From an uncultured virus (IMG/VR IMGVR_UViG_3300037993_000206) (Duplodnaviria; Heunggongvirae; Uroviricota; Caudoviricetes): a stretch of 64,000 bases of DNA. Of the stretch, positions 11,480 to 55,309 are shown in pieces. Position numbers and translations under genes: made by a program. The stretch lies in the IMG/VR virus record IMGVR_UViG_3300037993_000206; one strand, 5' to 3'. The notes under the pieces were generated by a model. It had not been told where the DNA came from. It saw only the letters and a program-made list of their open reading frames with translations, and ran no database searches. Within the stretch, counting starts at the first letter, position 1; each line of letters opens with the position of its first letter.

Positions 11480-11629
11480 TTAATGTACATGAGCCTTTTC
11501 TTTAAATAAAGCATCTTTAAATTTTTCTTCGTCAAAGTTTCCTGCTTTTATGTGTTGAAGGGCTTTTTCACCTAATATGTCAAATGTACATCTTGATTTA
11601 TCATCTTCGTAATCATAGACAAATTTAAA
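11480..11629 (-). pseudogene. Orphan 3' tail (49 codons) of a diverged allele of gene 12928-13302; its first ~20 nt are the predicted TnpB guide
   Basis: Translates FKFVYDYEDDKSRCTFDILGEKALQHIKAGNFDEEKFKDALFKEKAHVH*, 29/49 identical by hand to the C-terminus of 12928-13302; its stop abuts the next ATG. Confidence 0.85.
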
Positions 11630-11760
11630 CCGTTCCATAAGACTTACCCTTATTATCTAAGTAGTGCTTACTTCCTACTTCATCGTGGACAGCCTCTAAT
11701 TGTTGAGGACTTACACCCACTCCATAGGCGTTAATTCCCGAAGAACTTTCGGTATTTAAT
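11610..11760 (-). ncRNA. Predicted omegaRNA of tnpB1 (scaffold ending ...GGAACGG at 11630, guide 11629-11610)
   Basis: Overlaps tnpB 3' end; similar to the equivalent region of tnpB2; IS607-like AACGG end; 5' boundary approximate. Confidence 0.65.
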
Positions 11761-30681: not shown

Positions 30682-33600
30682 TTATGATTCGTACCATACC
30701 TGTTTTCTTACCTTTTTTTGCTGCCCGATTCATTTTTAAAGTTACAGCCCCTTTTGCACCTGGTTTTAAAGGAACTTTACGAACATAGACTGTCTGTATA
30801 CCTATAGGAATTATTAACTCACTACTAGGTGGTTTCCCTGTAACTTGCTGAATTGTTTGATAAATAGATTTTGCGTCTTTCATTATTATAGCATTTGGCG
30901 GAGGTTTTCTAAAGAAAGCTATATCCTTAGAAGTCTTATAAGGTGCTTTCAAAGCCCACCACCCAAAACCCCAGCGGAAAACCAAACTTCCACTAAAATC
31001 CTGAAACTTTTGGTCTGCTTTATTTCTTTGTTCTTCTGATCTTGTTAATATCACTAAACCTTTCTTTTTATTTTCATCAGTCTGAGTTTTAACATCCGTT
31101 ATAGGGACAACTAATGGTTCCGGTTGAACATCTGGTTTAGGTTTTGTTTCTGTTTCAGGTTGAACTAATGTTTGTGTCTGATTTGCCTGTAACGGTTTAA
31201 TCTCTTGCATTGGTGCAACTTCTATATTAGGTCTAATTTTTGTTGAAGTTTCATCGACAAGTTTAAAATCCGGTACGCTTGATAATCTACGTTCAATATT
31301 TTCATATTGATTGGTATTAGGGTTAAATACTAGGGTTGAAATAGCATCAACACTACGACTTTCGTCTTCACTCGTTGATAAAACTCCACTATATCTAGGA
31401 CTACCACCTTTTGTTTTAGATTTTGGTTCTATATTCCTAATGGGAATAGGTGTACCTGATTTATTAGGCATTTCTTCTTTAGTTATATCAATCTCTTTTG
31501 TTTCAGTTACCGCAAGTTTAGAACGCTCTGATTCTTCAGGGGCTACAAATCTAGTCCATTGTATTTCCTTAAACGGGTCTTTTAACCTTTCAGCTAATTG
31601 AGTTTTTTTACGTTCAATACTCTTTTGAAGTTCTTGAATATGGTCATCTAGAACTTTTTTACGATCAGGGTTAGTTGTGTTATTTCTTTTATCCCTAGAA
31701 ATCCCCAAATCATTTTCTTCTAATGCTATATTTTTACTAATTTCTTCATTAGGGGAACCTTTTTCTGATAATGATTCAACTGTAGATTTAACTTCATCTA
31801 ATTCCTTCAGAGTTACTTCTCTTAAACTTAATGGCAAATTATTCGCTTGTAATTTTAATTGTTCAATCTTGCCGTTTAACAATGCCATATTGCCAGAAGC
31901 AACTGACCATTTTACCGTATTACTTAAATCCATCCTCGCAATTTCATCACCTAAGAATAATTTACGAGCAATAGATTCAATCGTACCATCTAATGCACCT
32001 ATTCTATAAGTATAATATCGACTCATACGGTCTAGGAATTGAGCAGATAAATCTTGTAGTATGCTTTTATATTGTTTCCATTCAGAACTTTGCCTTAAAT
32101 TATTAATTTCAATTTCAGCATCCATTACTGTAATTTTATTCAGTTGTAATCTTTGTTTAATCTCTGACAACTTGCCTTTTAAAACACGCTCTAATTCAGC
32201 TAATTTTAACTCAGTGGCAAAATCAGTTTTTAAATCACGAGATATATCTTTTAGATAATCTAAGTGTAAAATTGAACCTTTATCTAAATTAGATGCCATG
32301 ATACTATCTGATAAATTATTAATATTCTCTAATGTATTGTTTAATTTTTGAATTGTAGTTTCATATACATTGGGAACTTCTGTTTTAACAACACTAATCG
32401 TATTCTGTAATTCCCTACCACTTTTTATAAATGCCTCTTTAATTGAGTTAGAAGCATTGCCCGACATAACCACATCAGCTAAATTATTCAAGTTATCTAA
32501 TTTACTATTTACTGATTGAACAACTGACTCATACCCACTACCTATAGACTTAGATACATTGGCAGAGTCTTGTTTAATTGTGCTAATAACATTAGATAAT
32601 TGTGCTTTCGTGGTATTTGAAGCCTTGCCTGACATTACATCATCAGCTATTTTATTAATAACCTCTAATCTATCATTCAATTTTTGGATAGTTGTCTCAT
32701 ACCCACTTGATGTTGATTTAGATATGCTAGTAAACCCATCTTTTACTACATTTAGACTCTGGATTAATTTATTCTTAGTGGCGACTGATAAATCACCTGA
32801 CATCACTTTATCGGACAATATGTTTATATTATCCAAACTATCATTTAATTTCTGGATACCTTTCTCATAACCTTGACCTGATAATTGGCCTATATTAATT
32901 AATTGTTGTTTCATTAATAAGGATGTATCTTTTATTCCATTAATGGTAGCATTGGATAAATCACCGGACATAACCTTATCTGCTAATACATTAATGTTCT
33001 CCATTCCATTGTTTAATTTTTGGATTGAAGATTCATAACTTACTTTAATCCCTTTACCTAAATCGCTTATCCCATTTTTAACTACTGATACCGATGTATT
33101 AAATGCCATTTTAGTTGCTTCTGAAGCACGACCAGACATAACATCATCGGCAAGTATATTAATTCTTTCCAACGCATTATTTAATTTATCCAAACTAACT
33201 TCTGGTAATGCCTTTAAAGTAACAATGGTTCTGGCAGGTAATCCAGCATTTGAAACATCTCTTATTGCACCTGTAATAATAGGACTACCTGATTTATCGA
33301 CTGTAACTCTACCACCTAATGATTGTTGTGTAGGTTCGACTTTCCCGAATGTTCCCTTTGCACCTAATCCAGTACCAACCGCCAATAAAGCATCAATAAT
33401 AATAGAGTCTATTAAGTCCGACTTCGACATTTTTGCTAAATTAGGAATTTGATCTTTCAAACCAGTAGTTAAGAAATATCCACCAGCACCAGACCCTAAT
33501 GCACTTGCAATTCTACTACCTACAGTCCCAATACCACCTATTAATTCACCACCACCTAACATTAAAACGTCTGCAAGTGTGGTAACACCAGCAGTCGTCC

Positions 33601-35173
33601 ATTCCATTTTACTAACTGGTTGCCCTGACATTTGTTTTGCAACTGGTGAGGTAATACCCGTAATTCCAGCCGATGCTATTTGAGCAATTAAACCACCTTG
33701 AAGTATTCCTAGTTCTCTTTGATGTTCTGATTCTGAGAATAAATTAGATTTATAAGCATCAGATTGATAAAGACTCATAATGTTGGTTTTCTGGTCACTG
33801 GTTAGAGCGTTCCATTTTAAATTAAGTTCCTGATTAGGTGAAACCGCTACCCCTGTCTTTTTATCTGAATAGCTTAATTGACCACCAATACTTACTAAAT
33901 TCGCATTAAGTATTTGTTGACGTTGTGCCTCTGTAAAATAACCCGCATTATCAATCGCATTATTTAAAGCCGCAACATATGGACTACTGAAATTCTTATC
34001 AATTAGAACATTCTGAATACTTTGAATAGCGGCATCTGCATTATCTACAGCACTCTTATCAAAACCGTTAGCCGTAAGATAGTTTTTGTCATTGACGGTA
34101 GGATGGTCTAACCGATAAGCAATTAAATTATAAACTGTATTACCAGCAGTTATAACTTTCTGTCCAGCGGTTATTTTACCATCAGTACCTATAAATGGGC
34201 CTTGCAAAGTAGATATAAACGGGCCTTGATAAATCGTAGCATAAGGTGACATCGTTTTAATAAATCTTTGTTGTGCATCAACTTGCTCTTGATATGTCGA
34301 TTGTTGCGACTGATTAACTAGATTTACGTAGGTTCTTAACGCTGTTAAACCTTGTGTTTTTGCAATCTGTTGTTGAGTTTGATTTAAGGCATTAAAATCA
34401 CTATTTGAGATATAAGTACCATCCCCTAAAAGAGTGTTGTTTTTTAAAAAATCCTTTTGTGCTTGCGTTTGGTTCGCATTTAACTGATTAATAGAGTTAT
34501 TATATTTGTTGACGTTAGAATTTAAGGTATTTACATCGTACTGATAGGCTTTAAATTGAGCATCCGTTCCAACAAAAACGCCATTCTTTATTAATGAATC
34601 ATAGCGACTTGAAATCATAGCTTTTTGACCATTAATAATAGAAAGAAGCTGTGCAGCACTTTGAGCAGATAACTTGCCGCTAGCATCTGTAGCAACTGAC
34701 TGGTCGTGAGATTGACCTTTCCAACCAATGTCCAAAGCACCTATAGCATCCGTTTGTACTATAACTTTGGGAGTAGGTTTTAATTCCGGCCAATCTTGCG
34801 CAATGATATTAGCGTCTTTACTTAATGCAAGTTTATCCGCATCAGTAAATTTACCCGTACTAACGGTTCCAGCAGGGACACCCCCTATAGTTCCGGTAGT
34901 AGGGAATAAGATATGAGAAGCTTCAAGTTCTGTCACACCAGGATGTGCCGCCATATAATCGGCAATCTTTTTTCGCGCCACTTCAGAAATTGCCGCTGCC
35001 GCACCTTGTGCTTGTGCCGCTAATAATCGTGCTTTAGCATTAACCGCTTCTATTTGTTGGGGTGTAAGTTGAATAGTATTTTGTTTAGCTAATGACTTAC
35101 TAGCATTAACATCTATTAACTGTTGTGCAGGGTTAGGTTGTTTGACTTGAGGTAAAATAGGATTTACAGGCAT
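30674..35173 (-). CDS. 1499-aa helical protein with central hydrophobic Gly-rich segments and 56-aa repeats (internal or DNA-entry protein candidate)
   Basis: Repeats YE..IQKLN..L.NIN.L.D.VMSG; coiled-coil character. Confidence 0.75.
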   Translation of the reverse strand: MPVNPILPQVKQPNPAQQLIDVNASKSLAKQNTIQLTPQQIEAVNAKARLLAAQAQGAAAAISEVARKKIADYMAAHPGVTELEASHILFPTTGTIGGVPAGTVSTGKFTDADKLALSKDANIIAQDWPELKPTPKVIVQTDAIGALDIGWKGQSHDQSVATDASGKLSAQSAAQLLSIINGQKAMISSRYDSLIKNGVFVGTDAQFKAYQYDVNTLNSNVNKYNNSINQLNANQTQAQKDFLKNNTLLGDGTYISNSDFNALNQTQQQIAKTQGLTALRTYVNLVNQSQQSTYQEQVDAQQRFIKTMSPYATIYQGPFISTLQGPFIGTDGKITAGQKVITAGNTVYNLIAYRLDHPTVNDKNYLTANGFDKSAVDNADAAIQSIQNVLIDKNFSSPYVAALNNAIDNAGYFTEAQRQQILNANLVSIGGQLSYSDKKTGVAVSPNQELNLKWNALTSDQKTNIMSLYQSDAYKSNLFSESEHQRELGILQGGLIAQIASAGITGITSPVAKQMSGQPVSKMEWTTAGVTTLADVLMLGGGELIGGIGTVGSRIASALGSGAGGYFLTTGLKDQIPNLAKMSKSDLIDSIIIDALLAVGTGLGAKGTFGKVEPTQQSLGGRVTVDKSGSPIITGAIRDVSNAGLPARTIVTLKALPEVSLDKLNNALERINILADDVMSGRASEATKMAFNTSVSVVKNGISDLGKGIKVSYESSIQKLNNGMENINVLADKVMSGDLSNATINGIKDTSLLMKQQLINIGQLSGQGYEKGIQKLNDSLDNINILSDKVMSGDLSVATKNKLIQSLNVVKDGFTSISKSTSSGYETTIQKLNDRLEVINKIADDVMSGKASNTTKAQLSNVISTIKQDSANVSKSIGSGYESVVQSVNSKLDNLNNLADVVMSGNASNSIKEAFIKSGRELQNTISVVKTEVPNVYETTIQKLNNTLENINNLSDSIMASNLDKGSILHLDYLKDISRDLKTDFATELKLAELERVLKGKLSEIKQRLQLNKITVMDAEIEINNLRQSSEWKQYKSILQDLSAQFLDRMSRYYTYRIGALDGTIESIARKLFLGDEIARMDLSNTVKWSVASGNMALLNGKIEQLKLQANNLPLSLREVTLKELDEVKSTVESLSEKGSPNEEISKNIALEENDLGISRDKRNNTTNPDRKKVLDDHIQELQKSIERKKTQLAERLKDPFKEIQWTRFVAPEESERSKLAVTETKEIDITKEEMPNKSGTPIPIRNIEPKSKTKGGSPRYSGVLSTSEDESRSVDAISTLVFNPNTNQYENIERRLSSVPDFKLVDETSTKIRPNIEVAPMQEIKPLQANQTQTLVQPETETKPKPDVQPEPLVVPITDVKTQTDENKKKGLVILTRSEEQRNKADQKFQDFSGSLVFRWGFGWWALKAPYKTSKDIAFFRKPPPNAIIMKDAKSIYQTIQQVTGKPPSSELIIPIGIQTVYVRKVPLKPGAKGAVTLKMNRAAKKGKKTGMVRIISG

Positions 35174-37127: not shown

Positions 37128-38630
37128 TTATTTATTTACTCCTGTAACTTTAGATATAAATTTATCATATGGTTCTGTCTGAAAAACTCCATACCAATAG
37201 GGTGTCACTGTCTTATCTACAATGAAAATTTGCTTTCCTTGTGCTAAGAGATTTTTAGTTTGTTCGATTGTATCTTTACCATCTAGTTTTGCCCACTTAA
37301 TATAGTCTAAATACCTGGGCGATAAAACCGAACCGCTATATTTTTCTAAGGCTATTTTTTGAGCGTCTTTGTCTGAAACTTTGTTTTGTTGTTTAGTTAA
37401 TTGTAACATAGTCGCTAAGTCAGGAGTAGTTGACGAATAAAATAATGGTAAGAACTTTTTACCTTGCGCCATAACATAATAGTTGGCTAACCCGTATTCT
37501 CCGCCAGAATTACAAATCAAATAACTTCCATCCGGTAAACTTTCAACTGATTTTTCATAATCGGTTGCTAAAGGGTATTGGTTATTTAAGACATTCGCAT
37601 TTAAGAAAAAACTATTGACTAGAACTAAGACAACCGCACCAACAAATACAACTTTCAAATGAGTTTGAGATAATTTATTCAAGCCTAATGCCACAAAAAT
37701 CATTATTAAGGGATAGGCGATTGGTAAGAAGTGCCATGTAGCAGGGTCACTGTCTGTCAGATAAAGCCATAGGACAAAACAAATAGTAATTAGTCCTAAA
37801 AGAATATATAAAGGTTGCTTAAAAATCCCTTTCAAACCGACAATCATAGGAACAATCGCAAAACCCAAACTGATACACATAATTTGCAAAAATTGGAGCA
37901 ATCTTTGTGGTGCTTGATACAAACTTAACGAGCCAACCGTACCAGTTGCCCCTAAATAATTATCAATTCCAGCAAGAGATAAATGTCCGGCAAGTAAACG
38001 TGGAGTTGGAAGATACATAAGAATTAAAACCATAGCATAAGGTAATAAACCAACCACTAAATAAATCCAGAAAGTGTGCCACCATTTTTTCAACTGAGTA
38101 ACATGGACAATGAACCATAAAACACTAATCGCAATCACAATAATCTGGATTGCCGAACCTAACGCCAACATCAAAACTGTGAGTTTCTTTTTGTCTTGAA
38201 TATAAAAGTAAAACGCAAGTGTAACGAACATAGAACTGATTGCAAATTCATCTAAGATTGTAGATTGAGTAACATAAAGTGCAGACCCTAAAAGAACCAA
38301 TACAGAAACCAAAGCAAGTTTAGAAGTCGTCAACTTTTTCACGATTAAATAAGTTGTGGCAACTGCAATAGAAGCCGGTAAGACATTCATAACAACGGTC
38401 ATTATTAAAGGTAGATTATTAGGTGCAATCAAATTCATCAAGTGACCGATTAAAACAAAAAGTGGTGAACCGTAAGGTTGAACATTCATCCAAAGTTTAG
38501 CAGAAGCAAACCAATCCATAGAATCAGAGCTATTGAAAAGCCAAGTCATTGATTTACTACATAAGATAAGGTAGTAAATAAAAGCAACTAAGTCTACAAA
38601 TAAATAATCATATTTACGAATAAAACTCAA
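37128..38630 (-). CDS. GT-C fold multi-pass glycosyltransferase (PMT/ArnT/DUF2723-like protein glycosyltransferase)
   Basis: SDSMDW...QPYGSPLF loop after TM1, QSTILDEF, about 10 TMs. Confidence 0.75.
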   Translation of the reverse strand: MSFIRKYDYLFVDLVAFIYYLILCSKSMTWLFNSSDSMDWFASAKLWMNVQPYGSPLFVLIGHLMNLIAPNNLPLIMTVVMNVLPASIAVATTYLIVKKLTTSKLALVSVLVLLGSALYVTQSTILDEFAISSMFVTLAFYFYIQDKKKLTVLMLALGSAIQIIVIAISVLWFIVHVTQLKKWWHTFWIYLVVGLLPYAMVLILMYLPTPRLLAGHLSLAGIDNYLGATGTVGSLSLYQAPQRLLQFLQIMCISLGFAIVPMIVGLKGIFKQPLYILLGLITICFVLWLYLTDSDPATWHFLPIAYPLIMIFVALGLNKLSQTHLKVVFVGAVVLVLVNSFFLNANVLNNQYPLATDYEKSVESLPDGSYLICNSGGEYGLANYYVMAQGKKFLPLFYSSTTPDLATMLQLTKQQNKVSDKDAQKIALEKYSGSVLSPRYLDYIKWAKLDGKDTIEQTKNLLAQGKQIFIVDKTVTPYWYGVFQTEPYDKFISKVTGVNK

Positions 38631-39457: not shown

Positions 39458-40756
39458 CTATGGATTTAAAATTCTTCCACATTCGACTGTTCTGTAAGAC
39501 TTATCTTTAGTGTTTGGTAGTTGCTTACTTTCTGTTTCACGGTCAATCGCTACCTTATATGGTAGGCTTACATCGACTCCACAGACGTTTATTCCCGATG
39601 AACCACCGGTATTTAATTTATCTAACCCATACTGGTATATATTTTGAGCCGCATTTTCATCCCTATCGTGTTTAACACCACAATTAGGGCAAACCCAATT
39701 TCTATCATCTAATGTCATCCCTTTAAATATATAATGGCAATCACTACACATTTTACTTGAAGGGTAACTTGTAGGGATTAAGATTAATCTTGAACCATAC
39801 CACTTTGTTTTATATTCAAGCATCTCTCTAAATATACCCCAACCTGAATCTGAAATCGACCTACCTAATATTTTATTACGCTTCAGATTTTCCACTTTTA
39901 AATCTTCGATACAAATAACTGACTTGGTTTTCGCCAGTTGACTTGTTAATTTTGCAATAAAATCATGTCTTGTATTCTCAATATGTTTATGACATTTAGA
40001 TAATTGGATATTAGCTTTATGCCTATTATGTGACCCCTTTTTAGTCCTTGCTTGTTGTTGTGCTAATATTTTTAAACGAGATAATTTTTTACTCAATGAC
40101 TTATGATGTTCAACTATATCTATACTATTACCATCATAAGTGGTTAAATAGTTCTTCAAGCCCACATCAATGCCGATGACACCCCCATTGTTTTTAACAT
40201 CGGTAATCTCTTTTGATACCTTTAGACAACAATACCAACGTTCAGATTCTTTTTTAATTGTTACATTTAATATTTTACCACTAAAACTACTTGTATCTTC
40301 TTTAACCCTTACAAATCCAATCTTGGGTAAATGTATTTTATTCCCATCTAGTCTTAATGTACTAGTTTTTCCATCGGCGACATTATTTGTTAATCTAAAG
40401 CTATCCCGTTCACCTTTCTTTTTAAACTTAGGTCTGCCATATTTTTTAGAATGATTTTGGATACGCCTAATTAAATCTGCGTATGCTCTATCTAAATCTT
40501 GTAATGATTCTTGTGCTACACATTTGGACACATCTAACATCCACGGATATTGGTTATACTTTATACTATTTAATTCAATATTCTGTTTATAAAACGAAGT
40601 GAACCGTTCCTTACCTTGTTTAGTATTATAAAGTTCAATCCGTTTCGCTAATCCCCAATTCCATACGAATCTTGAAGTCCCACAAGACTTTATAAACGCA
40701 GTCTTTTGTTTATTATTGGGATTCAATTCATATTTATATGCTTTTAAAACTATCAT
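39458..40756 (-). CDS. tnpB: IS607-type RNA-guided nuclease TnpB (copy 2), no transposase adjacent
   Basis: AYKYEL.P, RFVWN, GIDVG, ICIEDL, CSDC..CPNC, RDENAA. Confidence 0.95.
   Translation of the reverse strand: MIVLKAYKYELNPNNKQKTAFIKSCGTSRFVWNWGLAKRIELYNTKQGKERFTSFYKQNIELNSIKYNQYPWMLDVSKCVAQESLQDLDRAYADLIRRIQNHSKKYGRPKFKKKGERDSFRLTNNVADGKTSTLRLDGNKIHLPKIGFVRVKEDTSSFSGKILNVTIKKESERWYCCLKVSKEITDVKNNGGVIGIDVGLKNYLTTYDGNSIDIVEHHKSLSKKLSRLKILAQQQARTKKGSHNRHKANIQLSKCHKHIENTRHDFIAKLTSQLAKTKSVICIEDLKVENLKRNKILGRSISDSGWGIFREMLEYKTKWYGSRLILIPTSYPSSKMCSDCHYIFKGMTLDDRNWVCPNCGVKHDRDENAAQNIYQYGLDKLNTGGSSGINVCGVDVSLPYKVAIDRETESKQLPNTKDKSYRTVECGRILNP
39467..39615 (-). ncRNA. Predicted omegaRNA of tnpB2 (scaffold ending ...AGAACAG at 39487, guide 39486-39467)
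   Basis: Aligns to tnpB1 end (AAGTCTTACAGAACAG vs AAGTCTTATGGAACGG); 5' boundary approximate. Confidence 0.6.
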
Positions 40757-40889: not shown

Positions 40890-40901
40890 ATCCACATCTT
40901 A

Positions 40902-40930
40902 ATAATATCACACCATCTATCCATTGTCAA
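40902..40930 (-). promoter_or_regulatory. Promoter TTGACA-N17-TATTAT for RHH-tnpB2
   Basis: Motif match. Confidence 0.7.
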
Positions 40931-40944
40931 GACATATTTTGGAC

Positions 40945-40975
40945 AAAAGAAAGGGTGAGTTTTTACGCTCACCCC
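40945..40975 (-). terminator. Intrinsic terminator of the split capsid-like gene
   Basis: GGGTGAG-loop-CTCACCC followed by TTTCTTTT, 20 nt after stop. Confidence 0.75.
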
Positions 40976-40995
40976 ATTCCTTTGCTTCAGAATCG

Positions 40996-42248
40996 TTATT
41001 CCTTAGTACCAGCACCAGCGTTCTTCCACATTCTGTACGTTCTCTTAATCTTTCGATAAAGCGTGGACTATATTTTTATCCATCTTTTTCAGTGGATACA
41101 GCCTCTATAGTCTCTATGCATTGGCGGGTTCATTCCCCGTTTTAGTTTGGGATTACCATGCCCAATTTATTTGGGTTTAGGTTCAACCAAGTTAGGGCTG
41201 AGAGCCATCTAAGATTACTCTTAAATGCGGCCAGTATATCGACCATAACCAATAACGGAACCATAATCACAATTGCCGCAACGTATATGCATCTAATCTT
41301 TCGATATAGTATGGACTATACTTTCATCCGTTTCAGGATGCCCAACCTCTAGTCTCTACACATGATATCTGGTTCACTTCCAGACCTAGCTAGGGATTAC
41401 CATGACCATTATTGGTTTTAGGTTCAACCTAATTTGTTGGGAATTTTTACATCTACGATTACTCGTAAAGTTGGCCTGATTGACCAAAAGGAAAACGGCT
41501 TTGATTACTCATGTCACTCACATTTCTATGAGGTTCGGACTCTATCACATTCCTCTTTAAAGGAATCTCGCCGCCGAGTCTCTCCGCATGGCCTATCTTC
41601 AATTGATAGATTAGTTCGGTGGTTAACTTGCCTATTCTTTATTTTCTAGGTTTAGTTTTCCCCGACTTTGACGAGTTATTCGATGCACATTACTATGCAA
41701 AGACCCTAATCAGTTAAGGTACTACCAGTATCCGTACCGGAAATGCTAAATCTGTAATCTTATCTTTCGATAAGTGTCGGAACATATCATTACCCATCTA
41801 AGTGGGTATCCCCTCTATGTTCTCTTTGCGTTTCACCATTCATTTTGGTGTTTAGTTCTCGATTGGCTTACATCTTTTTAGATGATTAGCGTTCCAAGAG
41901 TTAGGGGGATTTTTCAACCTCAATTACTTGAGGAAGCGGCCATTTCTTTAACCGTCGGAGTTACGAAGTTCGCAATAACCAAGAAAACCACGATTGAAGC
42001 CACCATAGTAGCAAGCGATTTAATTTATGTTCTCCCATTTTTCAATGGATATCGGACTTTTTCTTTATCCTATAAAGGATAGTCCCTGTTAAGTCTCTGC
42101 ACACGCCCGAAGTTCATTTCTTCTGCTTGGCTCAAGATTACCATGACTCATTTCTAAGTTTTAGATTCCCTTGAATTTAAGGACTTCATTGACCTACAAA
42201 TTACTTTGTAGTCGGGCCTCGCTATTCACCCGTCATGAGGTGGCCCAT
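40996..42248 (-). CDS. Intron-split putative major capsid or envelope protein; exons 42248-42228, 42015-41951, 41745-41717, 41507-41483, 41289-41242, 41041-40996; product MGHLMTGLATMVASIVVFLVIANFVTPTVISGTDTGSTLIKAVFLLVIYVAAIVIMVPLLVMVTYRMWKNAGAGTKE (77 aa; 81 aa from ATG 42260)
   Basis: Exons joined at P1 U-G sites and terminal G give 234 nt in one open frame; two hydrophobic helices with a polar linker; own promoter and terminator. Confidence 0.8.
41042..41241 (-). ncRNA. Group I intron 5 (200 nt; alternative 3' splice site at 41033)
   Basis: P1 GGU/GCC, P2 GUAA loop, CCUAA..AUGG receptor, P7 GACUA/UAGUC, P9 GAAA loop. Confidence 0.9.
41290..41482 (-). ncRNA. Group I intron 4 (193 nt; 3' end set by frame)
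   Basis: P1 UUGGU/GCCAA, P2 GUAA, P7 GACUA/UAGUC, P9 GAAA. Confidence 0.9.
41508..41716 (-). ncRNA. Group I intron 3 (209 nt)
   Basis: P1 ACCU/GGGU, P10 UAAUCA/UGAUUA, P7 GACUC/GAGUC, P9 GAAA. Confidence 0.9.
41746..41950 (-). ncRNA. Group I intron 2 (205 nt)
   Basis: P1 CGGU/GCCG, P10 CAUUUC/GAAAUG, P7 GAACA/UGUUC, P9 GAAA. Confidence 0.9.
42016..42227 (-). ncRNA. Group I intron 1 (212 nt)
   Basis: P1 CGGGU/GCCCG, P10 CUUGCUA/UAGCGAG, P7 GACUU/AAGUC, P9 GAAA. Confidence 0.9.
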
Positions 42249-42373
42249 TTTTAGCACCATCGAACCAGTCTGAGCGACCAACCGTGTAGACCTTGTGGTC
42301 TACCGTAAAACATTTGCGAGACATTTTAAGAGTTTCTATAACTCACCTCTCGCATATATTTAACATTATTTTT

Positions 42374-42403
42374 ATTTTATCACTGGTTATTGGTTAATGT
42401 CAA
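42374..42403 (-). promoter_or_regulatory. Promoter TTGACA-N18-TAAAAT for the split capsid-like gene
   Basis: Motif match with extended TG. Confidence 0.65.
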
Positions 42404-42442
42404 TAGATTTTTGAGAACCAAATTTATATTATTTTAAGTAGG

Positions 42443-44584
42443 TTAAATAATAGTGAGTAGATTATAGATGATTAAGAATGAAATAATAGCGAAGATTAGC
42501 ATAGAAGCGGTTATGGCTAATGCCTTTACAGAACCATTGGCACGAATACGTATAATACCTACAAAGATAGCAATAGCTGCAACTTCTAATGGAATTAATG
42601 CCCAAAATATAGACCTAGAAGAATCTACGGGATATGAAACTAATGTTTCAGTTCCTATATTAATGTAAGTTCCTAACATATTTAAGTTTTCAGCCGCCGC
42701 CCAATTAGCGTCTACTGAGGATGTACTTATTCTAACCTCATCTATAATTCCGTTGAAATAATCGGATGCACCATTATAATAAGCCCCGATATTAAATGAG
42801 TTACTTTGATAAGGCGTAATTGCCGTACTAGATAAAGTGGCGGTATCAGCCGTTCCATTAATATAGATTCGCATGGTATTATCAACACCAATAGTAGCTT
42901 GAATCAAATACCAATTCCCTACTATTAAAGAAGTATTACCTTGAAGATATTGGTCAGTTGACCCATTACCAACCCCAAAAACGACCACATTATTAGCCCC
43001 ACTAGTCCGTAATCCTAAATATATTCCCGTAGCGGCGGTAGGACTAGAATTAGCTATAATTGAATTATAAGTTGAAATTGAACCGATTGGCTTAACCAAC
43101 GCTGTTAAGGTAAGTTGAGGCATGGAAGTACCAGGACTAGCCGTGATACCAATTACCTTTACGATACTTGAACCATTCGCTACGATGGCTTCTGTTGAAC
43201 CAACTAATCTAACACCAATAGTAGTACCACCAATTTGATTTGTTGAAGTATAAGTTGCAACACCAGTACCGACTGTGATTATTTTACAAAGTCCGGTTGA
43301 ACCTTCTGTGAATAGTATATGAGTATCGTCAGTCCATTCAAGATTATATATATGAGTTCCTAACCCACTATAAGTATAGCTGGTTACTTTTGTACCATAA
43401 TTTATTACTTGAATATCATTTGCACCATATTCTGCTAATGCTATTGTCAAATTTCCGCTGATTACTCTAGTAGCAACATCATTCGGCCTGTTAAATCCAG
43501 TCATCGTCCATAATACACTTTGATTTGCTCTACTTATTAATGTAAGCGAATTTGCACTCATATTAATAACCATAACCGAATCGTCCGTTGTGGTAAGAGT
43601 AACTGGTCTACAATATATTTCAGTTCCACTTGTATTATAAGACCATACTCTAGTTCCAGCAGGATTCAATTCATAAACATACCCACCACCATCACCATCT
43701 GCTGTTAGATAGTCACCATTAGAATATTTATAGACCGATTCCGGCCCATCCGTAGTAACTGTATCTGTTGGGCTATTATATTGGAATACTGCAACACCTG
43801 TTTTGGGATTAACTTCACCTATTCCCGTATGACCGGCACTTCCCCTAGCTACTGCATAAAGAATATTACCATTTGGAAGTAACATAGCCTGATAAATATT
43901 ACCCGTTATAGTATAGGGAGTTAAATCATATCTTTGAAGAATACCGTAGTTCCATGTAACCGGAATATATTGAGAAGATGTTGCTGTGAAACTCTGCCCG
44001 TTACCAACTTGACCTGCAATAGTAGGCGGATTTGCCGCTCCATTTTTAGCGATACTACCCATTGTTGATTGCATTGAATCATAGATATGAGAAGTATCTA
44101 CATAGTCGTCCATATGTCCAACAAATAAATGAGAAGAACTCCAAACATTAGATACTCCATAAGAATAAGTTTGACCATCTGTTGCGGTCGGATTATCGTA
44201 ATAAAACCAAAAATATGAAGTATTAACTGATGCCGAAATAGAAGGGACTTGAATCCATACTGTAGCTAATTGACTGACTGAGTTCCACTGTTCTATTTCA
44301 TAATTTAAGGAATTGAAATTTGAATCAGCAAAGCGAATATCCGCACCGCTGGATTGACAACGACTAAAGTTAAAATTAGTGCTATTTAATTGTAGCAAAA
44401 CAACAAAGTTAGTTAGAGTTTCAGGTATTGTTGCATTTAAGATTGATATTTTACGAACATAGGTATATCCAGTAAAACTAGAAGTAGCTTGTACTTTTTG
44501 TGGTTGATTTATACTGAATAGGCTTAGTAAAAGCACCAAACCTACTAATATAAAACCACTACGTTCTAAATATCGTTTTAACAT
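42443..44584 (-). CDS. Surface protein: DUF2341-like domain, beta-propeller insert, LamG/ConA-like domain, C-terminal double TM anchor
   Basis: GADIRF...L.YEIEQW...VWIQVP (DUF2341); F.GIIDEVRIS (LamG); signal peptide. Confidence 0.8.
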   Translation of the reverse strand: MLKRYLERSGFILVGLVLLLSLFSINQPQKVQATSSFTGYTYVRKISILNATIPETLTNFVVLLQLNSTNFNFSRCQSSGADIRFADSNFNSLNYEIEQWNSVSQLATVWIQVPSISASVNTSYFWFYYDNPTATDGQTYSYGVSNVWSSSHLFVGHMDDYVDTSHIYDSMQSTMGSIAKNGAANPPTIAGQVGNGQSFTATSSQYIPVTWNYGILQRYDLTPYTITGNIYQAMLLPNGNILYAVARGSAGHTGIGEVNPKTGVAVFQYNSPTDTVTTDGPESVYKYSNGDYLTADGDGGGYVYELNPAGTRVWSYNTSGTEIYCRPVTLTTTDDSVMVINMSANSLTLISRANQSVLWTMTGFNRPNDVATRVISGNLTIALAEYGANDIQVINYGTKVTSYTYSGLGTHIYNLEWTDDTHILFTEGSTGLCKIITVGTGVATYTSTNQIGGTTIGVRLVGSTEAIVANGSSIVKVIGITASPGTSMPQLTLTALVKPIGSISTYNSIIANSSPTAATGIYLGLRTSGANNVVVFGVGNGSTDQYLQGNTSLIVGNWYLIQATIGVDNTMRIYINGTADTATLSSTAITPYQSNSFNIGAYYNGASDYFNGIIDEVRISTSSVDANWAAAENLNMLGTYINIGTETLVSYPVDSSRSIFWALIPLEVAAIAIFVGIIRIRANGSVKALAITASMLIFAIISFLIIYNLLTII

Positions 44585-44614
44585 AGAACCAACTCCCGAT
44601 TTGCTTTATATGTT

Positions 44615-48235: not shown

Positions 48236-50062
48236 TTGGTACAAACTGAAAAACCATTAGGTATAAATAATTATGGAACAATCCCTCATTTAATTGGGAG
48301 TCGAGTTACATTAGGTGATAAACATTGTCACGAAGGTCAAGTTAGAATTGCGACTGAGAAAGTTAGAGATAGACACGATGAAGTAATCGTAACTGAAAAA
48401 GTTGATGGATGTTTAAATTCTCGTGTAGTTGTATTAACTGATAAAGGGAATATCCCAATTGGTAGAATAGTAAACCAAAAATTGCCAGTTTTAGTTGCTT
48501 CGTATAACGAGTCTAATCAAATAATAGAATATAAGAGAATATTAGAATATCATAAGCAACATTATAATGATAAGTGGATTAAGGTGAAAATTACATCGAC
48601 AAAACAAGGCAACCATCATCTTGTTATAACAGTTACACCTAATCATCTATTTTATTGTAAGAGAGGGAATGATATTCTTAATGTCCAAGCTATAGACTTA
48701 AAAATAGGTGATAAAGTATTCCAATCGGCTGATAAAATTGATACAGAAGCGTACCAAATAATATTAGGTGGATTATTAGGGGACTCTAGCTTTTTACATA
48801 CTGGGCCTAATCACCATTACGGGTTTGCATTTGGGCATTCCTTGTCACAAGAGGGGTATTTTATTTATAAAATGAGATTATTGGGAGGTTTAGTTCACGA
48901 AACAACTAGGCAACGTGGAGGTTTTGAAGGTAGTAAGGAAAATCGTAGGGCATATTCTCATCATACGCCATATGTAGATGATTTAATTACAAAAAATTGC
49001 ATCGTGGATGGCAAAAAAGGTATAACGACTCAATGGATAAAGCAACTTAATCCGCTTGGTTTGGCTATTTGGTATATGGATGATGGAAGTTGCAGGTTTA
49101 GTTCTATGCAAAGGCCTAGATTACACATTGCTACTAATGGTTTTCCATTTCATCAAGCTCAGATGTTGAGTGATATGTTACGGTTTAAGTTTAATATAGA
49201 TAATGGGGTATATGATTATAAAGGTGCAACTATAGTCTGTACGGCTGATGGAACAGAGAGATTCTTCGATTTAATTTATCCTTATGTACCCCAATGTATG
49301 AAATATAAATTGCCCCCTAAATATAAGAACAGGGCTTGTGTTCTAGAGGGGTTTTTTGGATTATATAGTTCTCAGTCTTTAATTGAAACTACAGTTGTTG
49401 ATATTGATTATAACGGGAAGGTTTATGAAGGGGAAAATTGGCAGTATGATTTAACAGTGGAAGATAACCATAACTACTTTGCTAGTGATATTTTAGTACA
49501 TAACTCCAATGTCGGGGTTGCATTGCTTAATGGTGAAATTATTGCATTAACTCGTGCTGGATATAAGGCAGAAACTTCACCTTATGAACAACATTGGCAT
49601 TGGAATAATTGGGTCAAATCTAACGAGAGTCGATTTAGATACATATTAAAAGAAGGTGAAAGAATTGTTGGTGAATGGCTTATGCAAGCACATGGTACAA
49701 GATATAATTTAATGCATGAACCATTCGTAGTTTTTGACTTAATGAAAGAACATGATAGAGTTTCTTATAATGAACTTTTAGAAAGAACTTATGGTTTTCA
49801 ACATCCCCATCTTTTATATCGTGGTAATCGACCATTAAGTATTGAAGCGGCTTTGAATATTTTAGGTGAACATGGATATCATGGAGCTATTGATTTAGCA
49901 GAAGGTTGTGTCTGGAAAATTGAAAGAAAAGGTATAGTAGATTTCATGTGTAAATATGTCAGACCTGACAAAGAAGATGGTATTTACTTACCGGAAAAAA
50001 GTAAGTTAGACCCTGTTTGGAATTGGTATCCGTATGGATATATTTTAAAAGAGGATAAATAA
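48236..50062 (+). CDS. ATP-dependent RNA ligase (Rnl2-like) interrupted by an intein
   Basis: Motif I TEKVDG|SN, GEW, FVVFD, EGCVW, KYV. Confidence 0.85.
   Translation: MVQTEKPLGINNYGTIPHLIGSRVTLGDKHCHEGQVRIATEKVRDRHDEVIVTEKVDGCLNSRVVVLTDKGNIPIGRIVNQKLPVLVASYNESNQIIEYKRILEYHKQHYNDKWIKVKITSTKQGNHHLVITVTPNHLFYCKRGNDILNVQAIDLKIGDKVFQSADKIDTEAYQIILGGLLGDSSFLHTGPNHHYGFAFGHSLSQEGYFIYKMRLLGGLVHETTRQRGGFEGSKENRRAYSHHTPYVDDLITKNCIVDGKKGITTQWIKQLNPLGLAIWYMDDGSCRFSSMQRPRLHIATNGFPFHQAQMLSDMLRFKFNIDNGVYDYKGATIVCTADGTERFFDLIYPYVPQCMKYKLPPKYKNRACVLEGFFGLYSSQSLIETTVVDIDYNGKVYEGENWQYDLTVEDNHNYFASDILVHNSNVGVALLNGEIIALTRAGYKAETSPYEQHWHWNNWVKSNESRFRYILKEGERIVGEWLMQAHGTRYNLMHEPFVVFDLMKEHDRVSYNELLERTYGFQHPHLLYRGNRPLSIEAALNILGEHGYHGAIDLAEGCVWKIERKGIVDFMCKYVRPDKEDGIYLPEKSKLDPVWNWYPYGYILKEDK
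48410..49504 (+). mobile_element. Intein (365 aa) with LAGLIDADG homing endonuclease
   Basis: Begins CLNS, TPNH block B, ILGGLLGDSS and LAIWYMDDGS, ends YDLTVEDNHNYFA...VHN followed by Ser. Confidence 0.92.
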
Positions 50063-51087: not shown

Positions 51088-51394
51088 CCTTTTGCCTCCT
51101 TTCGATCAAATTCCAGAAACCTTTAACCCCACCAATCTGTCTGGTTAGTTTTGGTTCACGCCTTTTCGCATGACTATGAGCTTTAGTACAACCTTTCGCC
51201 CAATCTGTTATCTCATACTTCTCATGCCCGATCATAGCATTTTGTAAGTCTTTATGTTCCTTTAAAACTGGGTCTATACGTATTACAGCGACTACATTTG
51301 TGCCTATCCCTTTCGGTTGATTTGCAACAAAGTGTATGGGATTACGACCACGCCGTGACTGTTTATAATAGCGTTTATGAATAGTGACTTTCAT
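51065..51394 (-). CDS. Basic protein with HExxE motif
   Basis: GHEKYE...AHSHA. Confidence 0.6.
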   Translation of the reverse strand: MKVTIHKRYYKQSRRGRNPIHFVANQPKGIGTNVVAVIRIDPVLKEHKDLQNAMIGHEKYEITDWAKGCTKAHSHAKRREPKLTRQIGGVKGFWNLIERRQKDGSKKKG

Positions 51395-51535
51395 TTAGTG
51401 GACTATCCTGACTCGACCCTGCTTATAGGCTCTAACCAATCGTTTATCCCGAAGCATCGGATTACCACCTTTCGTACCATAACGCTTAAACGCATTTTCA
51501 CCATGTCGTCTTTTGATTAATTCTACTCTATCCAT
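51395..51535 (-). CDS. Small basic protein (MDRVELIKRRHGENAFKRYGTKGGNP...)
   Basis: Hand-translated; GGGGTG SD. Confidence 0.55.
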   Translation of the reverse strand: MDRVELIKRRHGENAFKRYGTKGGNPMLRDKRLVRAYKQGRVRIVH

Positions 51536-51599
51536 ATCTTCACCCCAAAGGATAACCCTTTAACCCTTATAATTAGCATAGCACAACTCGCCAGATAAT

Positions 51600-52500
51600 G
51601 CAATAGGGTTAAGCCTTTGTGCCTCAAATTCTTAACTAATTTCACATTAACCTATGGTTGACACTAATTTATAACCTATTTTAGAGCCTAATTTTAACGT
51701 CTTTTTGACGTGTGCCGTGTTTTATGACGTGCCTGATATACCAAAAAACAGCCTGTTTTTAAGCTAAAATTGGCTATAATGACCAAAAAATCAAGCACAA
51801 AACAACCTGGAATAGCCTTTTATTGACGTGCTATTAGTCATGCTACGTCTGCCAGTATCCAGCATTACGCACAGACAAACGGGTATATGTGAGCCTAGAC
51901 GTGAGATAATGAGCTTATGACGTGAATTTAAAGCCTGACCAAAATATACCCTATACGCTCCAAAACAGGCAACAATGGCACGATACCAGAATACCTGATA
52001 GATTGATATACCAGACTGTTTGTTAAGCCTTGCTATGAGCCTTACAAATTAGTTAAGATATTGGTAACTAATAATGTGATAAAAGTCATATACAAGCGTA
52101 AACAGATAGTTTATGATTCAGATAATCAAACGCAAACAGAGAGGTAAGACAAGCAAACAAAGCCACAAGCGGCAAAAATCGAATTTTTAACAGAGCTGGA
52201 AAACTCAAAAAACTTATCCGATCCGATACTGAATATGATTTAAAACTATGTTGCGGTTGTCTCTCAATCAATCCGAATAAGCTGACAGCGGTAAACGTGA
52301 GGCAGGATTGAAAAAGTAGATAGTCGAAATGTTAGACATCTAATAAGGATGATAGCAGAATTGTAGATGATAAACAGTAACAAGGTAAACAATGTAACAG
52401 GTAAATATAATTTTTAATCTTTTGGTAAGCTGGCCAGAATTTCAGGCGATTACGTTTAAGATTGATATTGATTGAATCGAATTGACGTGAGTTATGCAGA
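51600..52500. other. Non-coding divergence region with repeated GACGTG and AGCCT words; candidate origin or genome-end junction
   Basis: Coding strand switches here; GACGTG at 51707, 51726, 51825, 51898, 51919, 52484. Confidence 0.45.
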
Positions 52501-55309
52501 TAGATTAATTGATACGCTTAAATTCAAAATTTGAAATATTGGCCAGCTTCTACAAGTGATTAAGATAAGGAGCGTACAATATGACAATCGAACAATTAAA
52601 AGCATGGTTTGTTAGTCGTGGATACAGTCAAGATAAATATGGACATTACCAAAAAACTTTAACGATAGGCGATAAGTCAAATACTTACAGATACAAGATT
52701 CAGGATATATCGATCAGAAAAGAAGTACAAATTACAGTCAATAGTTACAATAACACGCCTGTCCACGAATGGGTTAGACTTGCAAGTGGATATATTAGCA
52801 AGTTATCGATTAACGATAAAAATCAATTAGTCGGATTAAAAGCGTAATCATTTTATGAGACTCCCAAATCTAAATGATAATGGTTTGAGAGTCTGATTAA
52901 GTGATTAAATATAAGGAGTGTATAAAATGGGAAAGTATACAGACGAACAAGTGATTCAACTCATTGAGGCATTAAACGCATGGATGAAGTACGCAGATAC
53001 TAACTATTCGGGAGATGGTATGGATGCCATTAAACTAACTAGACTCGCATTATCTAACATTAAATAGCTAATCCCTTATACGATAGGCTGTAAGGTTTAA
53101 GGCTTTACGGTCTATGGTTTGAGTGATTAAGAAGTAAATATATAAGGAGTATCAAAACTATGAAAACTTTAAAATATCCGACTACATTAAAAGACTGCTT
53201 GTATAACTTTCACCCATCCTCTGGTAGTAATCCGGTTTATAATAAAGGTTTGATTGTAGGTGCTATATCTGGATTAATGGCTGTCGGATATACATTTGAG
53301 GATGCCTGTCAATTGGTTAACGAAAATTTACCATCGCAGAATAACCTTGATGTCTCATTACCTGAATCGTGGATAGAAGTATTCGCAAAATATCAAAAAT
53401 AAGGAGTGTATTAAAATGGTTTGCAACAAAAAACATAGTAATGTACTAATTGGAGATGGTCGTATTTTAACATTGAATGAGTTAAAAAATTTAACGCATA
53501 GTGAAGTATACATACAAGGGAAGTGCGGCCACTTTTTGAAAGTGCGAATTAATGGCCAGGTCAAAACATGGAAACGTAATCCAGACAAGGTACAAATACC
53601 TTACAAGTATGGACTATATGAGTATGGTTATATCACTGAAAATGATATCGTAAAAATTGATTGTTAATATTTTTATGAGTATCCATTAAAGCGTTAACCT
53701 TAGTGGATACTGATTAGAGTATTAAAGTATAAGGAGCGTAAACTATGAACGATATTGACTCATTAAAATTGACAGACTCGCAATTAAATAAGTTAGCTAA
53801 AATTGCCAAAAATGAAAACATAAGTCTAAATGACGCAATAAAAATATACGTATCAATCAAAGTAAATTACCGCCAATTTCTTGATATCGCAAACCTTAAG
53901 TCTGCATGGTTTGAAACTATGAGCCAAGCTAATTCATTTAAACAAACAATGGAGTCTGAAGGATACATAGTATTTGAACCACATTATGCAATAATGATGC
54001 GTGACTTACTAGGTTAGTGGATGATATTACAGTTTGTAAAGAATGTTTTGATCAGTTTCAAAAATGGTTATTACTTCAGGCCTATCGTAATTCATACCCA
54101 ACATATACAAAAATGCGACAAACTAAGGCATATTAGAAGTGATGCAGAATTATTAAATATTGCTAAACTTTGTGGCATAAAATAGGAGCGTTAAAAATGA
54201 TAACAAAGCAAAATATAAGTATCACAGAAGATATGAAACAAGCGGCAAAAACTTTATTTATGGCTATGGCTTTTACAGAAACAATCCGGCCAATAGTTGA
54301 AGGATACCAACAAAAAATCATTAACGAAATGAAGCCACAAGTCAATGAAAGAGATGCACAAATTTGTCGGATGGGATTTAAAATTATTACAAATCCTAAA
54401 CATTCATATTTAATGAATAATACAGACTTTCAAACCTACCTCAAGCGATGTAATGAGGAAAGAATCAAGGCTAAATTACATGTAGATAATGAGGAGTTTT
54501 GTCCATTATTAGTCGCTGAACATCTACAAAGTCAGGCTGAACGTGTTTTTGTTGAAGCTATGGAACCGATCACCCATTTATCACCTGATAAGGTTTTATG
54601 CTCAAAAGACGGATTAAACAATTATAAAAAATTAATAGACTTATCCTTAAGACTTTTAGCACCTTATGTTAAAAATAAAATATAGGAGATTAATAACTTG
54701 ACAGAAATAAAACTGAATTTTAAACCGACTGCAAGCGAAAATATTTTTATATCAGAACCTTATAAAGTAGTCCATTATGATTGGGTAAATAATGGAACTA
54801 TTGAGCGTTCAAATTGGCGGGCATACCATAGAATAATGTGTCCAGTATCTCATAAATGGTTATTCGGTAATGCTGTAGAATATAAATCACAGTATGAAAG
54901 TGTAGAATATCCAACAAAAGAGGCGGCAATATCCGCTTGTCAAAAACACTTTGAAAGTGAAGAAGGTAAAGCATTAATTAAAGAGCATAATAAATATTTT
55001 AAAGGATGATAAAATGAATACTTATAAAGTAATTGGGGAATCAAGGGAAGTCGGGGCAATAGGAATTTTTGAGCCGTTTATAGATTTTATCGATGTTGAA
55101 ACTTCAAAACAGGCATATAATCAAGTACGGGAAAAACTATACGCCCACAATCGAGAACATGTACATATTAAACAAATTTACTTAAAAGCTGAACCTATGG
55201 GGTGGCTTTCTGTTAATCCTACTCAATACCTTTAATCTATCACACGCTAACATCTAAGCATCAAAGTATTTTGTTTAGGTGTTAGGGTATAGTAGATTAA
55301 ATATAGGAG
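52415..55309 (+). repeat. Five intercistronic long hairpins TAAT(C)...(G)ATTA each followed by a (TA)AGGAG SD (about 52415, 52845, 53069, 53665, 55233)
   Basis: Visible inverted repeats with a shared 3' consensus GTGATTAA-N-TAAGGAG. Confidence 0.65.

Follow-up and report, generated by a model that had tools for sequence, protein, structure and literature searches.

What does a transcription unit encode when its reading frame exists only after its pieces have been joined? The question is raised by a locus on the minus strand of a 64,000-nucleotide (nt) stretch of DNA from an uncultured virus (IMG/VR record IMGVR_UViG_3300037993_000206); this stretch, at its full length, is called the window here, and coordinates given without a contig name are window positions. 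Between positions 42227 and 41042 we found five group I introns without open reading frames (ORFs), of 212, 205, 209, 193 and 200 nt, separating exons of 21, 65, 29, 25, 48 and 46 nt. Boundaries were set by two rules, namely that each exon ends in a U paired to the G at the end of helix P1 and that each intron ends in G. Joining the exons yields an open frame of 234 nt, comprising 77 codons and a TAA, which is present in the joined form only, and introns account for 1019 of the 1253 nt of the gene span (81%). The number, strand and sizes of the introns, the exon lengths, the frame and the intron share reproduce exactly what an earlier inspection of the letters (hereafter the sequence-only reading) had proposed. 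The promoter and terminator that it had placed on either side of the frame were likewise recovered, as a near-consensus sigma-70 promoter and an intrinsic terminator. We assign a probability of roughly 0.88 to the reading that the locus is a phage transcription unit for a 77-residue hairpin protein, interrupted by five self-splicing ORF-less introns and belonging to a class of genes in which such introns preferentially land. The elements of the unit, in the direction of transcription, are as follows.

42374..42403, minus strand: promoter, sigma-70-type, with a perfect -35 hexamer, an 18-nt spacer and an extended -10 element (TG ahead of the -10 box); 11/12 positions match
42249..42367, minus strand: 5' untranslated leader of ~119 nt with two small hairpins, as read from the sequence; lies under the contig from the X14 RNA library
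42228..42248, minus strand: exon 1, 21 nt, ATG and six codons, ending in U
42016..42227, minus strand: intron 1, group I, 212 nt; RF00028 73.3 bits, 5-bp P1 with U-G, 7-bp P10
41951..42015, minus strand: exon 2, 65 nt, first hydrophobic helix
41746..41950, minus strand: intron 2, group I, 205 nt; RF00028 34.2 bits, 4-bp P1, 6-bp P10
41717..41745, minus strand: exon 3, 29 nt, Thr/Ser/Gly-rich loop
41508..41716, minus strand: intron 3, group I, 209 nt; RF00028 44.8 bits, 4-bp P1, 6-bp P10
41483..41507, minus strand: exon 4, 25 nt
41290..41482, minus strand: intron 4, group I, 193 nt; RF00028 39.3 bits when searched alone, 5-bp P1, 3' end alternatively 41293
41242..41289, minus strand: exon 5, 48 nt, second hydrophobic helix
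41042..41241, minus strand: intron 5, group I, 200 nt; RF00028 25.1 bits when searched alone, 4-bp P1, 3' end alternatively 41033 or 41027
40996..41041, minus strand: exon 6, 46 nt including the TAA
40944..40975, minus strand: intrinsic terminator, an 8-bp stem at 40975-40952 with 5 G-C pairs, followed by a run of T

Assignment of the five elements to group I introns rests in the first place on the Rfam covariance model RF00028 (Intron_gpI). When the whole window was searched, this model matched the minus strand at 42033-42252 with 73.3 bits (expectation value, E, of 1.1e-16), at 41516-41726 with 44.8 bits and at 41758-41960 with 34.2 bits. A further match of 51.1 bits at 41044-41501 combines two introns, its 5' half coming from intron 4 and its 3' half from intron 5. 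Searched alone, introns 4 and 5 scored 39.3 bits (E 5.3e-9) and 25.1 bits (E 1e-4), and since the 51.1-bit match thereby resolves into two separate ones, the elements number five and not four. The covariance-model check put forward with the sequence-only reading thus detects every one of the introns, each along the full model (positions 1-253) and with E between 1e-16 and 1e-4. A permissive Rfam scan of all 64 kb returned no further group I intron and no other RNA family at E <= 0.01.

The architecture of the individual copies agrees with this assignment. Each of the five upstream exons has a terminal U that pairs with a G of the guide sequence within a P1 of 4-5 base pairs (bp); in every intron P2 is capped by GUAA and P9 by GAAA, and the final base is G. 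Each of these features could be read where it had been claimed. The P10 pairings of introns 1, 2 and 3, announced as 6-7 bp, measure 7, 6 and 6 bp, and their strand abuts the P1 strand, lying directly 5' of it in the guide sequence, which is the canonical arrangement. Helices P1, P2, P3, P4, P7, P8 and P9 were located in each copy with a helix-finding script and consist mostly of different sequences, P7 differing among the copies just as first described. Since the five introns share merely 60-70% pairwise identity, the helices have been maintained by compensation and not by recent copying.

Covariation was assessed on an alignment in which the five window introns stand beside three relatives taken from two viral contigs. 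Stacked, pairing column pairs, sought in this alignment without prior bias, gave P2, P3, P7, P8 and P9 in canonical order together with the P3/P7 pseudoknot. Over 25 pairs, 98.0% of the 200 cells pair, a percentage that is inflated because the helices were chosen on that same alignment, and the value falls to 32-40.5% when the partners are slid by 1-3 columns. Both sides have changed in 19 of the 25 pairs, and none of 500 shuffles reached the observed values. This inflation of the percentage does not touch the compensatory changes or the agreement with the textbook topology. The longest sense-strand ORF within the intron-bearing span has 47 codons, so that a homing endonuclease cannot fit, as had been stated from the outset; none of the window introns carries the internal endonuclease ORF that would make it a mobile intron with its own enzyme. 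The five elements are real compact group I introns, and from their sequence we infer that they would splice autocatalytically and completely.

Are the exons joined where the rules predict? The stretch is present in peat metagenomes, of which one run contains all of the sampled words, and the pieces recovered from X2 and X3 hold no differing letters. A 385-nt contig from a metatranscriptome library (X14), derived from a related strain that is 95-99% alike, spans the leader, exons 1-3 and the first 148 nt of intron 3. In this contig position 41951 is joined to 41745 with no base gained or lost, intron 2 (205 nt) being absent exactly as predicted. Across 42232-42006 the window sequence is replaced by 13 letters, exactly as many as a spliced junction of exons 1 and 2 would have. 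These letters hold five changes at third codon positions, all of them synonymous, and the six residues spanning the junction are kept. Through one of the five changes the 5' splice site of intron 1 has lost its U, which makes it most likely that the DNA of the X14 strain has no intron 1. Taken as a comparison of strains, the contig shows introns 1 and 2 to be precisely dispensable and the frame to be under purifying selection. The splice sites of introns 1-3 stand as first placed, with the junctions of introns 1 and 2 matched by the contig. Its end, ~8 nt past 42362, falls near the transcript start predicted from the promoter, which weakly suggests that the contig derives from a transcript. 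In a metagenome of the viral fraction (X13), intron 1, exon 2 and the beginning of intron 2 stand uninterrupted on one contig of 277 nt.

The remaining boundaries are placed by the reading frame. For intron 4 the frame stays open only with the G at 41290 or, at the cost of one additional codon, the G at 41293 as the 3' site, while for intron 5 the Gs at 41042, 41033, 41027, 41015 and 41009 all lead to the same stop codon; every other candidate for the two introns disrupts the frame, extends it through the terminator or meets a different stop early on. The sequence-only reading had described both 3' sites as less certain, which is borne out by these alternatives a few bases apart. It had also flagged the start codon as uncertain. 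The ribosome-binding site ahead of the ATG at 42248 is weak. A deletion of 2 nt at 42253 in the X14 strain shifts the ATG at 42260, further upstream, out of frame, and ATG 42248 is for this reason favoured as the start, so that this part of the doubt has lessened.

Does an independent locus obey the same rules? A search of IMG/VR with a pattern of the intron core returned three loci, among them L039 in the 80,562-nt viral contig G001, where a short gene contains two group I introns (RF00028, 71.7 and 45.4 bits) that are the only RF00028 matches in the contig. When the exons of L039 were joined by the P1 and terminal-G rules, 66 of 67 residues were identical to P0002, an intron-less protein; the predicted junctions thus coincide with those of an intron-less allele. 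The first L039 intron separates the Gly codon of residue 6 from the Leu codon next to it, and window intron 1 lies between Gly 7 and Leu, with identical phase and a similar guide sequence. Window intron 3 is 68% identical to the second L039 intron. A second IMG/VR scan, made with an alignment of the protein family, returned only the G001 contig again.

The likeness extends to the surroundings of the two genes. L039 consists of a consensus promoter, the split gene, a terminator, a second promoter and a gene for a 44-residue ribbon-helix-helix protein, further on from which G001 encodes a NUMOD3 homing endonuclease, a TnpB-like protein and a 3275-residue tape-measure-like protein. Common to both records is the order of a membrane-anchored Ig/LamG-type gene, the small gene, a terminator, a promoter and the ribbon-helix-helix gene, followed by TnpB and a giant coiled-coil protein. 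The two also share an RNA ligase (65-68% identity) and four other proteins, and a TMEM260-like polytopic membrane protein is found in both (E 7e-15; window 37128-38630, minus strand; L097 8383-10098, plus strand). In each record the split small gene is the sole intron-bearing gene. The NUMOD3-type gene (L039 3235-4092, plus strand; 285 residues) is free-standing, lies ~560 nt downstream of the small gene and is a candidate helper of intron mobility.

The protein family of the counterpart gene, marked by an invariant ATITTPTY motif in its loop, indicates how often such genes are invaded. With the middle exon of L039 (47 residues) as query we obtained 60 proteins of 43-82 residues at E <= 1.5e-6; 53 of these 60 close relatives are 59-70 residues long and were taken as intron-less alleles. 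The family profile covers 57 representatives at E <= 0.001, in many of which the conserved part stops abruptly into unrelated sequence or starts only after an unrelated head. Counting tails of at least 20 residues C-terminal or at least 12 residues N-terminal to the conserved part gave 42, and 17 of them match sense-strand translations of eight intron DNAs (41-100% identity over 9-52 residues; E <= 1e-3, computed in the very small database formed by these eight introns). Two representatives read through two introns with an eight-residue exon between them. Including those of L039, the intron sites deduced in this way number at least seven and fall at family positions ~6, 14/15, 24, 39, 46, 52-55 and 60-64, positions that come from proteins alone and are approximate to ~2 residues. 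This class of small hairpin-protein genes is a general hot spot for compact group I introns, apparently one that has gone undescribed. As a separate observation, five family members (P0087, P0089, P0096, P0106 and P0112) are extended at the C terminus by 92-166 residues, and a conserved domain recurs in four of the extensions; P0087 and P0112 show weak LAGLIDADG similarity (E 0.016-0.053), and the extension may be an intron-encoded endonuclease read in frame.

On the molecular level, we propose that the strong sigma-70-type promoter would give rise to a pre-mRNA of ~1.4 kb ending at the intrinsic terminator, in which each ribozyme would fold alone, bind guanosine, cut after the P1 U and join the flanking exons. 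The guide would pair with the last 4-5 bases of the preceding exon (P1) and, in introns 1-3, also with the first 6-7 bases of the following one (P10). Five guanosine-initiated self-splicing events would thus be needed per transcript before the 234-nt message could be translated. Because the introns are only 60-70% alike, they are presumably old or separately acquired and not fresh copies of one another. Their spread has probably proceeded through endonucleases encoded elsewhere or through reverse splicing at sites ending in GGU. The borrowed-endonuclease route is considered because of the free-standing endonuclease of G001 and the LAGLIDADG-like tails of some family members, and the reverse-splicing route because GGU precedes four of the five window intron sites and two guide sequences are identical.

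Relatives of the introns reach beyond this gene class. Another viral contig, L038, has at 2478-2692 on its minus strand a group I intron (64.1 bits) that is 68% identical to window intron 1 and has a similar guide; it interrupts an HK97-type major capsid gene (Pfam Phage_capsid, E 4.8e-43), and an ORF for an HNH endonuclease follows. The intron-core pattern was also found in 53 loci of bacterial metagenome-assembled genomes (L040-L092), often beside transfer RNA (tRNA) genes, in Chloroflexota, Pyrinomonadaceae, Saprospiraceae, the candidate phyla radiation and others. In at least six of these loci (L041, L047, L053, L058, L086 and L092) ARAGORN recognised a tRNA across the junction, with the intron at anticodon-loop position 32-33; this junction scan is noisy, a tRNA appearing in 30 of 52 loci over 16,436 candidate joins, and only the consistent ones were trusted. 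A wider picture, in which a lineage of large uncultured bacterial viruses possesses a small and highly expressed helix-hairpin gene, whose product is perhaps a glycosylated virion or capsid-type protein and a distant relative of spindle-virus capsids, and in which this gene acts as a super-hot-spot for compact tRNA-type introns spreading by reverse splicing into an mRNA of great abundance or with the aid of free-standing endonucleases, seems to us possible, if doubtful. Were it true, at least 7-8 insertion sites would lie within ~200 nt across relatives, with up to five of them filled in one allele, and such gene-wide targeting, for the most part after GGU, by introns that bear no endonuclease would not fit classical site-specific homing.

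Several observations weigh against the reading of a working, five-intron phage gene. Taken alone, four of the five introns fall under the curated RF00028 gathering score of 50 bits, which only intron 1 exceeds; P10 is weak in introns 4 and 5, whose 3' sites are fixed by the reading frame only and are uncertain by a few bases; the ribosome-binding site is weak, as mentioned; and intron 3 is retained in the X14 contig as far as its first 148 nt. The X14 contig is moreover an assembly from a related strain, and since an RNA library can contain DNA, it is not proof of splicing. The low scores, the weak P10 pairings and the retained intron would also suit a graveyard, that is, a gene inactivated by accumulated intron relics that no longer splice and giving no protein. 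We regard this as very improbable, as the core helices are intact in all copies and maintained by compensatory changes, the six exons still form one open frame, all five differences at the exon 1/exon 2 junction are synonymous, promoter and terminator are near consensus, and the counterpart locus, which has introns of the same kind, is exactly colinear with an intron-less protein. A different objection concerns the order of joining: guides might pair with the wrong exon ends, so that exon skipping would produce shorter, in-frame, one-helix products beside the full protein. All upstream exons but one end in GGU, two guides are identical, introns 2, 4 and 5 all follow the second base of a Val codon so that skipping among them keeps the frame, and exon skipping is reported for tandem phage group I introns in Twort orf142 and in an SIOphi gene (PMC11878797). 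We nevertheless consider it rather unlikely here, no read or contig with a skipped form having been seen and the X14 contig joining neighbouring exons in order.

The sequence-only reading further suggested that the five splicing events could gate late expression or shield the gene from nucleases or clustered regularly interspaced short palindromic repeat (CRISPR) systems. On this speculative view the introns are kept because they time expression through splicing or fragment the sequence that host nucleases and CRISPR would recognise, and their gathering in this one gene in two distantly related viruses, with none elsewhere in the records, would agree indirectly with a function. Set against this, intron-less alleles are common in the counterpart family (53 of 60 relatives), so that the introns are dispensable, and intron number and position vary among relatives as selfish spread predicts, which makes a function of this kind quite improbable in our view. 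The preferred reading, of a functional gene with self-splicing introns in a frequently invaded gene class, meets further resistance on the side of the protein and of the virus. Scored against the family profile with hmmsearch, the window product gives 0.3 bits, and with a broader profile -4.7 bits, a value at least equalled by 1876 of 2000 shuffles; the window encodes no other member of the ATITTPTY family, and G001 encodes no better match to the window product. Profiles thus do not place the product in the family, to which it corresponds in position, size, two-helix build and intron placement, and because significant similarity is lacking, the statement that both are of the same gene class rests on position, architecture and intron placement. 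Finally, the window showed no gene for a capsid, portal or terminase protein, and its viral nature is deduced from the IMG/VR relative, the X13 pieces from the viral metagenome and weak PHROG matches.

What kind of protein would the spliced message encode? The 77-residue product has two hydrophobic helices with a short Thr/Ser/Gly-rich loop between them and is probably a membrane or virion hairpin protein. For the counterpart family a structural model likewise gives a helix hairpin, with helices at 2-32 and 38-66 (mean predicted local distance difference test score, pLDDT, 71.8). P0002 and its relatives have no significant match in Pfam or PHROGs and none by tblastn among GenBank phages, and Foldseek against viral models returned nothing below E 2.3 for this family. 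The leads towards a capsid-type protein are all weak. The Pfam family His1_capsid (PF25665) matched 7 of 23 family members at E <= 10, the best with E 0.0057 and 17 bits against a cut-off of 27. VP1 of SSV19 (7xdi_A) was the only non-repeat match in a profile search of the PDB (E 6.4) and the first of nine Foldseek matches there (E 3.2, TM 0.38). Among Atlas clusters, 11% of members carry His1_capsid (scores 0.92-0.93) and 29% VP1_VP3 (0.88), and PHROG 5402, "virion structural protein", was matched with E 0.00096. These values, every one below threshold and obtained for the counterpart family and not for the window product, make a capsid-type hairpin protein a lead suggested by sequence and model comparison, neither a Pfam match above threshold nor a significant fold match having been obtained. 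The sequence-only reading had called the product capsid-like and its gene probably the most highly expressed structural gene, a claim that finds no support in leads of this rank, and the window product shows no significant similarity to the family in which they arose.

Capsid proteins of spindle-shaped archaeal viruses (PF25665; Fuselloviridae VP1; 7xdi chain A) are similarly small, at ~70-85 residues, and are hydrophobic helix hairpins; in contrast to such a relationship, no family match is significant, and the hosts here are bacteria as judged from the sigma-70 promoters. Both viruses encode several glycosyltransferases, GtrA-like proteins, B12-radical SAM enzymes and a protein O-mannosyltransferase-like enzyme, and because of these glycosyltransferases the Thr/Ser-rich loop may be glycosylated.

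Upstream of the locus is the gene for a protein of 713 residues that has a signal sequence, DUF2341 and LamG domains and, at its C terminus, membrane helices, and the next gene downstream has its own promoter and encodes a 45-residue ribbon-helix-helix protein, after which a TnpB gene follows. The window has a G+C content of 32-41% and few matches to phage families, namely weak baseplate and spanin-like PHROG matches and genes of the homing-endonuclease type. Judged by its relative G001, it is most likely part of a large uncultured tailed phage from peat. Although the capsid leads and DUF2206 hint at archaea, an archaeal host is unlikely in view of four near-consensus sigma-70 promoters with perfect -35 boxes. 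ARAGORN found neither a tRNA nor a transfer-messenger RNA (tmRNA) in the window, and the idea that the exons build a tRNA or tmRNA was dropped.

Searches for near relatives of the window returned little. Blastn of 40900-44600 against GenBank phages gave no match; IMG/VR scans with the 713-, 1499- and 500-residue neighbour proteins, confirmed by tblastn, yielded no locus; and the exact 27-nt pattern common to introns 4 and 5 had no IMG/VR match. Scanning metagenomes with the 713-residue neighbour produced 36 loci that have only the DUF2341/LamG domain in common (28-40% identity) and in which no relative of the spliced product was detected (best tblastn E 0.22).

Other features of the two records may be noted here. 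The RNA ligase gene of the window (48236-50062, plus strand) contains a LAGLIDADG intein (Pfam Intein_splicing, LAGLIDADG_2 and RNA_ligase), and the G001 ligase, which aligns to window residues 1-73 and 396-599 only, seems to lack it. The window has two TnpB (IS605 OrfB / Cas12f-like) genes, at 39458-40756 and 11625-12905, both on the minus strand; one stands directly after the ribbon-helix-helix gene, and the TnpB-like gene of L039/G001 is similarly placed. A 1499-residue protein (30674-35173, minus strand) has at least six copies of a ~45-residue repeat ending in VMSG and no family match, and perhaps corresponds to the tape-measure-like protein of 3275 residues in G001. Two intervals of the window, 51394-54170 and 55776-57308, have no ORF of at least 100 codons and no Rfam match at E <= 0.01. 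G001 also encodes a 301-residue Zot-family protein (L097 1620-2525, plus strand; E 1.2e-5, 25.3 bits against a cut-off of 20.3). Zot is the assembly ATPase of filamentous phages and is odd beside a tape-measure-like giant protein. No counterpart of it was found in the window, a 349-residue window protein having been rejected as such (BLASTP E 0.37).

How does this locus compare with what is known of group I introns in phages? Such introns are mostly single, or two to three per gene, usually in conserved enzymes and often with homing endonucleases. In a non-exhaustive literature search we met no phage protein gene reported to contain five group I introns, and among the matches listed, work on four to seven group I introns deals mostly with organelle or ribosomal RNA genes, a few papers, one of them on a phage genome, having other topics. 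The locus is the densest packing of group I introns in a virus gene that we found and an extreme case of the known tandem phage introns. With five endonuclease-less introns making up 81% of the gene span, it stretches the known limit of self-splicing RNA that a virus gene tolerates and provides a natural set of five ribozymes with similar guides that would have to work in order on micro-exons of 25-65 nt. A family hit at many sites makes the spread of ORF-less introns, by reverse splicing or by borrowed endonucleases, directly testable, and the compact introns are potential material for ribozyme and RNA-circularisation work.

Two known groups come closest. The introns have sizes of 193-212 nt, GUAA in L2 and GAAA in L9 of all five, and a receptor-like P5 motif, traits that, compared by architecture, may place them in subgroup IC3. 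Introns of the Azoarcus-type IC3 build are ~200 nt long, lack an ORF and additional peripheral domains, and have L2 and L9 tetraloops whose receptors lie in P8 and P5. The Azoarcus-like compact layout of ~200 nt proposed in the sequence-only reading is upheld in its L2/L9 tetraloops and in a P5 motif that resembles the 11-nt tetraloop receptor. Like the tRNA introns of Azoarcus and cyanobacteria (IC3), the window introns are ~200 nt long, ORF-less and GNRA-capped at P2 and P9; they differ in standing five in a row in a viral protein gene and not singly in a tRNA anticodon loop. The other comparison is with tandem introns in phages, where genes with "two or even three introns" are described, among them the tail tube gene orf142 of Twort, with three self-splicing group I introns and exon skipping, and the DNA polymerase and terminase genes of Bastillevirinae, with two or three introns, and where phage group I introns are assigned to the IA2 type (PMC11878797). 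Our locus resembles Twort orf142 and the Bastillevirinae genes in having several ORF-less or small introns, short internal exons and multiple splicing events in one gene. It differs from them in having five introns where they have up to three, in a gene of 234 nt that is 81% intron; in that this gene encodes a tiny hydrophobic protein and neither a DNA-metabolism enzyme nor a tail or capsid protein from any known family; and in that its introns appear to be of the compact tRNA-intron type and not of the phage IA2 type.

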